A stretch of 64,000 nt of DNA from the NCBI RefSeq assembly GCF_036588685.1, contig NC_086386.1, positions 25,730,001 to 25,794,000 of the forward strand. Reading direction: 5' to 3'. Every line of letters starts with the position of its first letter. Within the stretch, counting starts at the first letter, position 1. The notes below the pieces were generated by a model. It ran no database searches. It was not told where the DNA came from and saw only the letters and a list, made by a program, of their open reading frames with translations. This DNA comes from Mytilus trossulus. Taxonomy: Eukaryota. Below, piece by piece: positions 60,401-63,094 of the stretch. The position numbers and the translations under genes are program-made.

Positions 60401-63094
60401 TACACTATAAGTAATGACAGACAATTCTGCACTCAAACACCACCATAATATGCTATGGGTTACTTCTTCTTCCTCTCTCCATATAAGCTTCATTCATAAG
60501 GAACAACAAGGATTATCTCCAAGTAAACATACTATTTACACATTAAGATATATAGTAGATATTTTTTAAAAGTTATTGTCCAACGGTTAACATATACAGT
60601 AAAACTCTTCTATTTACACATAAAATCCGAGTTTCATTTATAAACATTAAAACACAACTTATAGGGAATAAAACTGTTTGTTTCAGACCGTCAACCATCC
60701 ATTGCCTCAAGCAGCTTTAAGCGCTTAATATAAAGTTTATATCACATCTCCCTAGTTTTGGCGACAAAACAATCAATAGTTTTGTTTGAGTTTTACCTTT
60801 CCTTACACATGTTTTATTGTTACCATCATCAAATATTGAAAAAAACGTATGCTAAAGAAAAATATAGAAGTTGAGGCAAGTTGTGATTTTTGTTGTTAAT
60901 TTTGTTATGGTGTCAGACAGAAATCCGCCATCATTTGCCTCTCTCACCTCCTTCCTCTTGTCGTGATAAAACAGGAGCATCTTTCCATCAATAAATTTTA
61001 TAATCATAGTGTCAAGTCACAATCATGAATATCAGGTCAGGGAAAACTTCGAATTAAAATAATCGTTGACTATTAAAAAAAAGAAAAACTAAAATCCGTC
61101 ACTGACTTCTGCAAAAATTAGTATGTGAAATCATGTTTCTTCAGCCTGAAATAACCGAGTGATGAAATAGTTAAACGCAGATTATTTTCAGTTTTCTCTT
61201 TGTCAATATCAAATCAAAGAGAAAATCATCTTTTTGTTTCATTCTTCTCTCAGTTAAAGCTTTATATACACCTGATTTATTTATATATCGTTGACACTAT
61301 ACGTCTACTAGCTAGTCCAGAGATATATATATATTGATGTCTCTGATCAGACCCATAGAATTGTTTTGTTATTCAAGTTTTACAAATCTATACTAGTATT
61401 TGTTTAAATCTTTTTATTAGGTCAAACCGGGTTCCACATGCGCTGTTTGGGGCTTAGGAGCAATAGGCATGGCAACAATAATGGGTTGCAGAAAAGCAGG
61501 TGCTTCCCGTATAATAGGTATCGACATAAACCAAGACAAGTTCAAACAAGGTAATACTGTTGGCCCTCGTAGCCGTATTACATTTATGTTATATGATAGT
61601 TATAAATGCCAAACAACTTTTGTGCGTATATATGGATATTGTGTTGCAAAATCATGCGATGTGTCCTTTTGATTGATACTTCTTCCATAGCCTATAAGCC
61701 GATCCTTGGCTAGCGAAGATAGGTGTTTAATCTGAATTTTTAAATTCCAATTAGTTTGGCCTTTAGCATCACTGAAGATACATTGTTTCATTTCTAGTAT
61801 CTATGATGAGTTCATTGATTTTTTTGTTTAATTCCAATCAAGATGCCTTATCAAAGTCCTAAACTGGCTTTAAATGGTAAAACTGACACGAAATATGAAA
61901 TAATGATTTTGGTTGAAATTAATCTGTTTTTAGGAGAATTGGTTTTTTTTTGCTAACAACATTCAAGTTAATTGTGTCTAGGATTTTTGTTTCATAGCAT
62001 ATTGCTTTAAATACGTGAAGTATGATTAAAAAGAAGCCATTGATTCCTATTAAGGGTTGTAAATGTTAAAGTTGAAGCATGTATATATATCCTAATGATT
62101 TAGGCCCACCATCATGATTTCGCGGTCGTTTACTATAACCTAATATCAGCGTCACAAATGTTCACGGATATATTCCCCCTATTTGTAAAACAAAATTCCA
62201 TCCTCTTCTCTATATATTTATGTTATTCCGGAATGAAACATGTTTTTGTGTCACTTTTTGCCATGAATAAGCGTAACAATGAGTATCACTTTTGGAGCAG
62301 AAATTGCTTCCCAATCTGTGGTCCATAAGTTCATCTGCAGATTTTACGTGACATTTTCTCGTGTTTCTCCATCTTTCTGTGCATGTAGTAAGTTAAAATT
62401 CTTATTTTCTGACTGGCGAGTTTTTAATAACCAATTCGTTCATTTTTCCTTTAAACGGAAATGAGAACATCACATCGTTGACAATGTAAAGGAATTTGAT
62501 GCGACTGTCATACAAGTGAGAGGTTTAGCTAGCAATAAAACCAGGTTCAATCCACCATTTTCTACATAAGAAAATGCCTGTATCAAGTCAGGAATATGAC
62601 AGTTGTTATTCATTCGTTTGATGTGTTTGGACTTTTGATTTTGCCTTTTGCCTTTTGATTTTCCTTTTTGAATTTTCCTCGGAGTTCAGTATTTTTGTGT
62701 TTTTACTTTCTACCATATGTTTTAGGTAAAATTTTTGGTATGACAGAGGGAGTTAATCCAAAGGATCATGACAAACCACTCCATGAAGTGCTAGCTGAAA
62801 TGACAGGAGGTGGCCTAGATTATACATTTGAATGTATTGGAAACGTGAAATGTATGGTAAGTTCACATATCATTTTAAAAAGATCAAACTATTCAAAATA
62901 TAAATGATATATATTATATCATAGAGATTCATCATTAACTGACAAATTTCCATTTCAGCAAACCGCCTTTGAATCAACACATAAAGGCTGGGGTAAAACC
63001 ATTATAATTGGCATTGCACCGAATACGCATGAATTTTGCACCAAACCATTTAATTTTACAATGGGTAAAGGAATTCTTGGATCATTTTATGGAG
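54445..63094 (+). CDS. ADH5-like: Zinc-dependent medium-chain alcohol dehydrogenase, class-III (ADH5)-derived but divergent; exons 1-9, 3' end outside window
   Basis: Exons 54445-54465, 55323-55424, 56174-56315, 58139-58229, 59047-59179, 60091-60177, 61421-61550, 62726-62856 and 62959-63094 (973 nt, open frame). Motifs CKAAV, GVCHSD, GHEGAG, CxxCxxC...C structural Zn, LLGCG, GLGAIG Rossmann fold, DIN, FECIG and HKGWG. Confidence 0.96.
55323..55424 (+). CDS. ADH exon 2 ([34 protein letters not shown])
   Basis: AG/GT bounded, phase 0-0. Confidence 0.96.
56174..56315 (+). CDS. ADH exon 3 (GVCHSD...GHEGAG)
   Basis: Catalytic Zn ligands Cys and His; AG/GT bounded. Confidence 0.97.
56665..57200 (-). 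repeat. Family T3 fragment with decayed twister P4 (56916-56937)
   Basis: Minus strand GTGCCTGTCTGAAGTCAGGAGCCTG upstream of the shared 3' module. Confidence 0.7.
58139..58229 (+). CDS. ADH exon 4 (structural Zn, CNKCKSC...NLC)
   Basis: tttcag / gtaag, phase 1-2. Confidence 0.96.
59047..59179 (+). CDS. ADH exon 5 ([25 protein letters not shown])
   Basis: ttgtag / gtaat, phase 2-0. Confidence 0.96.
60091..60177 (+). CDS. ADH exon 6 ([18 protein letters not shown])
   Basis: tcttag / gtaaa, phase 0-0. Confidence 0.96.
61421..61550 (+). CDS. ADH exon 7 (Rossmann GLGAIG...GIDIN)
   Basis: tattag / gtaat, phase 0-1. Confidence 0.96.
62465..62709 (+). repeat. Family T2 3' end abutting the ADH exon 8 acceptor
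   Basis: Best-preserved T2 copy in the window. Confidence 0.85.
62501..62606 (+). ncRNA. Variant type-P5 twister-like motif (family T2)
   Basis: gcgactgtcat..gtga-GAGGT-...-CAA-TCC-ACC-attttct/agaaaat-GCCTGTATCAAGTCAGGA-atatgacagttgt. Confidence 0.65.
62726..62856 (+). CDS. ADH exon 8 (NPKD...[12 protein letters not shown])
   Basis: ttttag / gtaag, phase 1-0. Confidence 0.96.
62959..63094 (+). CDS. ADH exon 9 (HKGWG...GSFYG)
   Basis: tttcag / gtaag, phase 0-1. Confidence 0.95.

Follow-up and report, generated by a model that had tools for sequence, protein, structure and literature searches.

A putative P1-less twister core in the 3' terminal repeat of Naiad Penelope-like retroelements

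We analyzed a motif at positions 62501 to 62606 of a 64,000-nucleotide stretch of Mytilus trossulus DNA (NC_086386.1, positions 25,730,001 to 25,794,000 of the forward strand; hereafter, the window), which is animal DNA of about 31% GC with many dispersed repeats. The motif belongs to a repeat family called T2, a second family in the window being T1, and lies in the terminal repeat at the 3' end of a Naiad Penelope-like retroelement (PLE). The motif is probably a type-P5 twister ribozyme core without helix P1, likely cutting the element RNA between positions 62548 and 62549, a reading to which we assign a probability of nearly four in five by analogy with known twisters. The initial annotation had proposed, from the letters alone, that T1 and T2 share a conserved twister fold; with relatives added, this fold is supported more strongly than could be shown at that stage.

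Helices are named by the usual twister scheme, and the T2 copy is laid out as follows.

62471..62709, + strand: 5'-truncated 3' end of a T2-family Naiad, matching Naiad_Mgal; contig cover starts in the bin 62468-62488, and loose ends are heterogeneous past 62709.
62501..62511, + strand: 5' arm of P5, the open end of the type-P5 permutation, pairing with 62596-62606 in the minimum free energy (MFE) fold; 0 of 500 shuffles were as stable.
62516..62519, + strand: 3' strand of P2, with U62517 predicted to be bulged, a register that pairs fully in 19 of the 24 copies with a 3-nt P2 among the matches listed from the metagenome scan below.
62520..62524, + strand: G62520 at the general-base position, A62521 of the A-A pair, and the long-pseudoknot strand 62522-62524, read from the sequence with roles assigned by analogy with twister structures (PMC5408937).
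62526..62535, + strand: palindrome X, at the site of the P1 3' strand, a perfect 10-mer in the family majority and here with one change (62534), according to the family consensus and the palindrome test.
62538..62548, + strand: palindrome Y, with one unpaired centre, at the site of the P1 5' strand and ending 1 nt before the predicted cut, according to the palindrome test.
62548..62550, + strand: cleavage site C62548/A62549 predicted from the twister consensus, with A at the general-acid position, followed by A62550.
62551..62555, + strand: 5' strand of P2, 62551-62553 (3 nt), followed by the short-pseudoknot strand at 62554-62555; neither substitutions nor indels reach 15% in any of the four sequencing runs.
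62556..62576, + strand: P3 hairpin of the predicted fold.
62577..62592, + strand: P4 (62577-62580 with 62589-62592; pairing probability, 1.00) and loop L4, which holds the partners of both pseudoknots.
62596..62606, + strand: 3' arm of P5 in the MFE fold.

The T2 copy has an N^AA site with the general-acid A, a general-base G followed by A, the P4-L4 element, a short pseudoknot of 2 bp, and three long-pseudoknot pairs. The spacer between the long-pseudoknot strand and the AA at 62549-62550 measures 24 nt and ends with C62548, and the element ends at 62709, 161 nt past the predicted cut (162 nt at the equivalent point of a full-length relative, locus L132). The letters given in the initial annotation are present, namely, GAGGU with loop UAUC and ACC with AAGU at 62520 for T2, GAGGG with loop UCCC and GCC with AAGU in the T1 copies at 15249, 28662, and 22943 (minus strand), and the P3 and P5 arms named for T2, which pair in the predicted fold. 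Its suggestion of a short or bulged P2 was also borne out: the 3-bp helix with its predicted bulge occurs throughout the family, and its pairs covary. The insertion at 62471-62709 sits in an intron of a zinc-binding dehydrogenase gene, on the gene's own strand, flanked by ADH_zinc_N matches at 61421-61558 and 62728-62859 (exons). This copy is a passive, 5'-truncated intronic insertion that is nearly intact by chance, with one G-U pair in the long pseudoknot and one change in palindrome X.

The repeats were identified as Naiads through their reverse transcriptase (RT). The T1 motif comes after an RT C-terminus on the same strand; among 120 long homologs of this RT, 107 have DKA, and a GIY-YIG-like motif stands before the RT in 71 and after it in none, an N-terminal GIY-YIG, a C-terminal RT, and a change of DKG to DKA being the diagnostic features of Naiad (PMC8557442). 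In two T2 copies of the window, colinear RT fragments precede the motif; in the RT tree, these fragments fall together with L132 and L090 (support, 100). L132 holds a full GIY-YIG-RT open reading frame (ORF) of 1019 amino acids with DKA (GIY-YIG, 139-230; RT, 739-870), and 200 nt past the RT match comes a motif with the same bulged P2; a repeat of the L132 tail is found upstream. The L090 ORF likewise has DKA. The Naiad domain architecture is seen in these relatives, the window itself containing RT fragments only. A tandem structure with pseudo-long terminal repeats (pseudo-LTRs) is apparent in L132, where 1-91 equals 3502-3592, and in L135 and L138, which carry the motif in both direct repeats with a unit of 3838 nt (the Naiad unit is 3.4 to 4.4 kb). 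The motif lies on the sense strand, a few hundred nucleotides after the RT stop and about 160 nt from the element's 3' end, and also in the upstream repeats. In addition, the published Naiad_Mgal consensus, compared by eye, ends in the T2 element with the T2 majority letters. T1 and T2, which had been taken for unrelated repeat families, are thus both Naiad 3' ends with homologous RTs; the families are related, and the covariation between them reflects descent under constraint.

A strict twister-core descriptor without family-specific letters, in which a 3-nt P2 was allowed because of the 62501 motif, matched the window four times (three T1, one T2), compared to 3 matches in 300 order-2 Markov windows, a background of 0.01 per window. 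A loose descriptor, without limits on P3, P5, or G-U pairs, matched six times versus 1.3 times per simulated window, indicating that the twister core alone is not rare in AT-rich DNA. When loci were instead collected by their RT (29 Naiad loci, 18 of them eligible), a relaxed descriptor gave 11 matches, all on the strand of the RT and none in the ORF, and a downstream match at 200 to 573 nt after the RT was found in 7 of the 18 eligible loci versus 2 of 720 shuffled regions. In this test, a match at 1504 on the minus strand is probably due to chance. The motif was seen by eye only in L140, L155, and L157. These 29 loci (L132 to L160) lie in assemblies labelled as bacterial and are likely animal host contigs. 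Among eight published Naiad consensus 3' ends inspected by eye, the motif was seen in five (Mgal, Bpla, Mphi, Scon, and Mmer); the Mcor consensus stops short of it, and two others have a different tail. We consider it very improbable that the likeness to twisters is a chance fit in an AT-rich repeat: the background of the loose descriptor, the match at 1504, and Rfam scores below threshold would be in line with such a fit, whereas the background of the strict descriptor, the bias of strand and position in the RT-first loci, two-sided changes at many pairs, and the rank of Twister-P5 as the top Rfam match of T1 argue against it, the more so as the Rfam gathering level also misses the twister-like motifs of 11 phage loci.

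The metagenome motif scan covered at least 120 loci; among the matches listed, 62 were AT-rich, 53 of these were parsed, and 43 were kept as well anchored (8 were dropped for an anchor score above 2, plus 2 of the P1 type). The outer long-pseudoknot pair, a position left free by the pattern, is standard in 39 of the 43 copies (A-U in 24, C-G in 11), as is the variable short-pseudoknot pair, again in 39 of 43 (A-U in 27, G-C in 6, G-U in 6). In 10 family representatives, 49 of 50 pseudoknot cells are paired (permutation p of 1e-4, a value inflated by descriptor selection and shared ancestry). Two-sided changes were found at the inner and middle (C-G/U-A) and outer (C-G/A-U) pairs of the long pseudoknot, at the first pair of the short pseudoknot (A-U/C-G/G-U), and in P2 and P4. 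The short pseudoknot is AC/GU in the T2 copy, and its pairs are A-U, G-C, G-U, or C-G in relatives. Between T1 and T2 themselves, the compensatory changes that had been claimed for both pseudoknots hold for the long one, where C-G is replaced by A-U on both sides, but not for the short one, where G-U becomes A-U by a one-sided change. All 10 representatives share the general-base G, the two adenines at the predicted cut, and the adenines of L4, letters that the descriptor requires.

Two groups of loci differed in design. L141, L143, L152, L155, and L157 form a clade in which the motif lacks P3, L4 is longer by one U, and the short pseudoknot is CC/GG. L055, L093, L109, and many other loci of 40 to 50% GC belong to a high-copy repeat with a P1-type twister-like motif, some behind a tRNA-like head, which suggests a short interspersed element (SINE) carrying a twister.

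Contigs from 4 of 24 listed sequencing runs (16846, 926, 929, and 1607 records), aligned to the T2 copy, provided the family consensus. T62583 is C in 96 to 98% of contig depth in four of four runs, so that the family has a G-C long-pseudoknot pair where the 62501 copy has G-U, and A62534 is T in 80 to 95% of the depth, which makes palindrome X perfect at 10 nt. The GAGGU/ACC pairing is demonstrated by this family majority. The copies with an ACC loop cited earlier in its support, at 40380 and about 6170, do exist, but neither has an intact GAGGU strand and P4 is broken at 40380, so they do not demonstrate T2 pairing. Across the four runs, P2, the GAGGU strand, the short pseudoknot, P4, and P5 were free of indels and of variants reaching 15%, and the general-acid A and general-base G positions likewise had no variant of that frequency, while the nucleotide before the predicted cut, 62548, is C or U (U, 34 to 74%). 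Six variable positions fell within 62501-62606 and 15 within 62607-62709, which is weak evidence of constraint because the copies of a young family differ little in any case and the alignment downstream is perturbed by indels.

Several observations weigh against a twister core in these elements. There was no Rfam match at the gathering level within the window, T2 had no twister match in Rfam even at an E value of 10, and T1, for which Twister-P5 ranks top, scored 23.1 bits versus a cut-off of 37.6. Nested folding, which cannot model pseudoknots, buries the T2 long-pseudoknot strand in a competing hairpin (unpaired probability, 0.04 to 0.08) and gives P2 a probability of 0.00 to 0.01 in T1, T2, L132, and L148. 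Most copies in the window are decayed, and 11 of the 18 eligible Naiad loci have no downstream descriptor match. Moreover, the relaxed descriptor selects for pairing and was widened after the RT-first loci had been viewed; 5 of 15 intended representatives did not parse; and the representatives lack independence (A goes with A2, and L141, L143, and L152 belong to one clade). In L148 and, as judged by eye, three of the published consensuses, U-U stands at the outer position of the long pseudoknot. Finally, in a plain MAFFT alignment of 13 motif-first copies, from which P2 was excluded since MAFFT misaligns the 3-nt and 4-nt types, covariation was modest, with 11 and 17 of 500 shuffles reaching the observed values, a level that relatedness alone could give. 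The region at 62501-62606 folds better than shuffles (z of -3.48; 1 of 200 as good) because of P3, P4, and P5.

Part of this evidence would also fit a fold that is conserved but noncatalytic or mostly off, either bound as a 3' structure by the Naiad protein or resting in the competing hairpin, with rare or no cutting in the bulged-P2 families. The prevalence of the competing hairpin in nested folds, the absence of P1 and shortness of P2 in T2, the low in vitro activity of PLE hammerheads (PMC4209133), and the many Naiads without the motif point in this direction. We nevertheless find this account unlikely, since the G at the general-base position, the adenines at the predicted cut, and those of L4 stay constant (descriptor letters, with a background of 2 of 720) while the stems change, the nucleotide before the predicted cut varies as it does in twisters, and defects of P1 and P2 are tolerated by tested twisters (PMC11662667).

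Other ribozyme classes and Rfam families were considered as well. Hammerhead and hepatitis delta virus-like readings, made by eye, fitted no core, while the twister descriptor fits every element but P1, and a simple hammerhead core pattern, which is not a full descriptor search, matched none of the 29 loci in the sequence following the RT, which is short in many of them. When 17 of the 29 RT-first loci were searched against Rfam by E value, there were tRNA, selenocysteine insertion sequence (SECIS), and sub-threshold microRNA matches and no ribozyme. The SECIS matches lie at 600-662 and 4438-4500 of L135 and at 1271-1334 of L148 (below the cut-off), in Naiads with a twister-like motif downstream. 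At the gathering level, Rfam gave no twister match in the 11 phage loci. Among these phage contigs, L002, L003, L006, L009, and L011 have P1- or P3-type twister-like motifs with the same P4-L4 18-mer as the T2 copy. A search of viral contigs for related loci confirmed 0 of 49 candidates.

The main departure from the canonical twister is the loss of P1 together with the presence of two palindromes, rather than the P2 bulge; the missing P1 had been overlooked in the initial annotation. Beside the core, P1 has 0 bp in 35 of the 43 well-anchored copies and in 6 of the 10 representatives, T1 and T2 included, and Rfam leaves the region unaligned. The palindromes, which are part of no descriptor, gave an arm sum of 77 in the 10 representatives versus 43.2 ± 3.8 (maximum, 55) in 2000 shuffles. 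Taken singly, those of 3 of the 10 representatives were not significant, and the test on single decayed copies was mixed, with a joint p of 0.0006 to 0.027 for five of seven families and no significance for A2 and B. A minority A-to-G change at 62538 (16 to 18% in two of four runs) would pair with C at 62548 and leave palindrome Y perfect. As for P2, T1 has 4 bp and T2 has 3 bp plus the bulge throughout the family; three alternative registers were rejected, each being paired in only 1 or 2 of the 24 copies in which the bulged register was assessed. The first P2 pair is U-A, C-G, A-U, or G-U depending on the family. A single origin of the bulged P2 is not supported, as the bulge is not confined to one RT lineage: it is present in L140 too, and L148, a further carrier, falls with T1 and L135.

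High-throughput data indicate that tested twisters tolerate imperfections of P1 and P2 (PMC11662667), P1-less twisters cut at a near wild-type rate (PMC5408937), and twisters withstand a defective P2 or pseudoknot G-U pairs but not the loss of catalytic residues (PMC11662667, PMC5408937). On the basis of this tolerance, we infer cleavage at 62548/62549, and since P1 is missing and the Rfam scores are low, we class the motif as one that works like a type-P5 twister, without counting it as canonical. Both pseudoknots, P2, and P4 would fold as in solved twisters, with G62520 acting as the general base and A62549 as the general acid. The motif copies at the two ends of a tandem transcript would each cut, with processing at each pseudo-LTR releasing unit-length RNA, a role that has been proposed for hammerheads in other PLEs (PMC4209133).

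The palindromes replacing P1 may in turn pair between two motif copies and so couple or license cleavage, a step that we put forward tentatively. Palindrome sequences vary between families, their centres are self-complementary, and their monomer hairpins are weak, which suggests pairing between two copies, and the idea is further motivated by the PLE hammerheads found at the same place, whose closing helices are palindromic and for which dimeric action has been proposed. In the predicted homodimers of T1, L143, L148, and L152, the long-pseudoknot strand is released. In contrast, the T2 homodimer fold keeps the competing pairing, and two P5-closed loops could not wind two full helices round each other, as judged from topology. 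An alternative to the dimer step alone, which we rate as close to an even chance, is that the ribozyme acts as a plain monomer and that the palindromes function at the 3' end that the cut creates (in priming, template switching, or formation of inverted PLE copies) or act as protein sites at the DNA level. It would agree with the near wild-type rate of P1-less twisters, the coincidence of the end of palindrome Y with the predicted cut, the topological strain of full double pairing between closed loops, and the frequent occurrence of inverted copies at PLE insertions (PMC8557442). The variation of palindrome sequence from family to family, which fits pairing better than a protein site, the strand released in the homodimers, and the dimeric hammerheads at the same place in other PLEs (PMC4209133) speak for the dimer. 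The composite scenario, in which many Naiads swapped the hammerhead for a P1-less twister working as a dimer, with palindromes joining the copies at both transcript ends and coupling their cleavage, is in our estimate less likely than not.

Compared with the type-P5 twister (RF02684, clan CL00120), the Naiad motif has the same open end at P5, the same order of elements (P2', GA plus pseudoknot strand, N^AA, P2, short pseudoknot, P3, P4-L4), and the same catalytic G and A positions. It differs in the absence of P1, the two palindromes in its place, the 3-bp bulged P2 of T2 and relatives, the AC/GU or CC/GG short pseudoknot, scores below gathering, and cleavage that is here predicted. The T-variant twisters of Schistosoma mansoni Perere-3 (RTE clade) resemble it in their weak or missing P1 and their link to a retrotransposon; they stand, however, at the 5' end of an APE-RT element and take P1 from the target-site duplication (PMC8501958), while the Naiad motif is internal to the 3' pseudo-LTR of a PLE, is of type P5, and has fixed palindromes. 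The minimal hammerheads of PLE pseudo-LTRs share the element position, a weakened palindromic closing helix, and the proposed dimeric action but belong to another ribozyme class and have one palindrome where the Naiad motif has two (PMC4209133). Naiad_Mgal and related consensuses agree with our elements in that T2 is the Naiad_Mgal 3' end and in their N-terminal GIY-YIG, C-terminal RT, and DKA (PMC8557442). Naiads were reported to be without canonical hammerheads, and this absence prompted the suggestion that the ribozyme might be a passenger (PMC8557442). A term search for "twister" gave 0 hits in the text and supplement of PMC8557442 and 0 in the accessible part of bioRxiv 10.64898/2026.07.22.740005, and unpublished truncated twisters at RTE 5' ends are mentioned in PMC7761336. 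We found no report of a twister in a PLE in the open literature searched, including the available portions of PMC7761336, PMC6765202, PMC10085705, PMC11662667, PMC8501958, PMC4209133, PMC5408937, and PMC8557442, a scope that does not extend to subscription articles or the original twister and mini-twister papers.

The window contains the following other Naiad copies.

28658..28724, + strand: intact T1 motif with a 4-bp P2; its best Rfam match is Twister-P5 at 23.1 bits and an E value of 0.005 (cut-off, 37.6), with P1 unaligned.
14560..15557, + strand: T1 copy with a Naiad RT C-terminus at 14560-14913, then the motif (G at 15249) and tail; from RT match and descriptor.
22680..24134, - strand: T1 copy with RT fragments at 24134-23279 and the motif G at 22943; from RT match and descriptor.
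28338..30178, - strand: degenerate T2 copy with RT fragments at 30178-29370, 3' untranslated region, a nested T1 insertion, and a broken T2 motif; from RT matches.
400..2009, - strand: second degenerate T2 copy with RT fragments at 2009-1490 and a broken motif at 569-429, colinear with the copy at 28338..30178; from RT matches.
21285..21488, + strand: degenerate T2 copy with 81% identity to the 62501 copy; from sequence comparison.
6251-6046 (-), 17917-17958, 40379-40448, and 47079-46962 (-): further T2 fragments; from sequence comparison.

The nested T1 tail lies at 28629-28973, and short twister-bearing tails likewise sit within the ORF of other Naiad copies in L015 and L085. A large inverted repeat at 47703-50709 (913 nt, 87%) encloses short tandem units as well as a T1 copy, and a run of N, an assembly gap, lies at about 30580-30730. 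A third Naiad family has RT ends at 33714-34020 (+), 10240-10014 (-), and 20800-21054 (+), followed by a different tail in which the twister descriptor had no match. Naiad_Pmar and the preceding published consensus end in a motif and palindromes similar to this tail, perhaps another structured RNA at the same place; a pattern search for this other tail motif gave two weak matches. A further repeat family at 56935 (-) and 43358-43616, with RT at 56024-55542 (-), has the P4 stem in common and is perhaps the T3 of the initial annotation; of this possible T3 family, the window copy has a broken loop and an L107 fragment an intact one.

Naiad is the dominant PLE clade of bivalves, and 3,782 3' ends have been reported for the host of Naiad_Mgal (PMC8557442). 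A twister-type core would add thousands of copies per bivalve genome that current Rfam models miss, many of them in host introns, together with a natural twister design that lacks P1 and possibly depends on dimers. If the dimer reading is true, this would be a natural dimer-gated twister that has converged on the design of the dimeric hammerheads. That several Naiad lineages keep a twister-type core where other PLEs have hammerheads suggests that self-cleavage is often preserved while the ribozyme class is exchangeable, and what cleavage contributes to PLE retrotransposition can thereby be put to a direct test.

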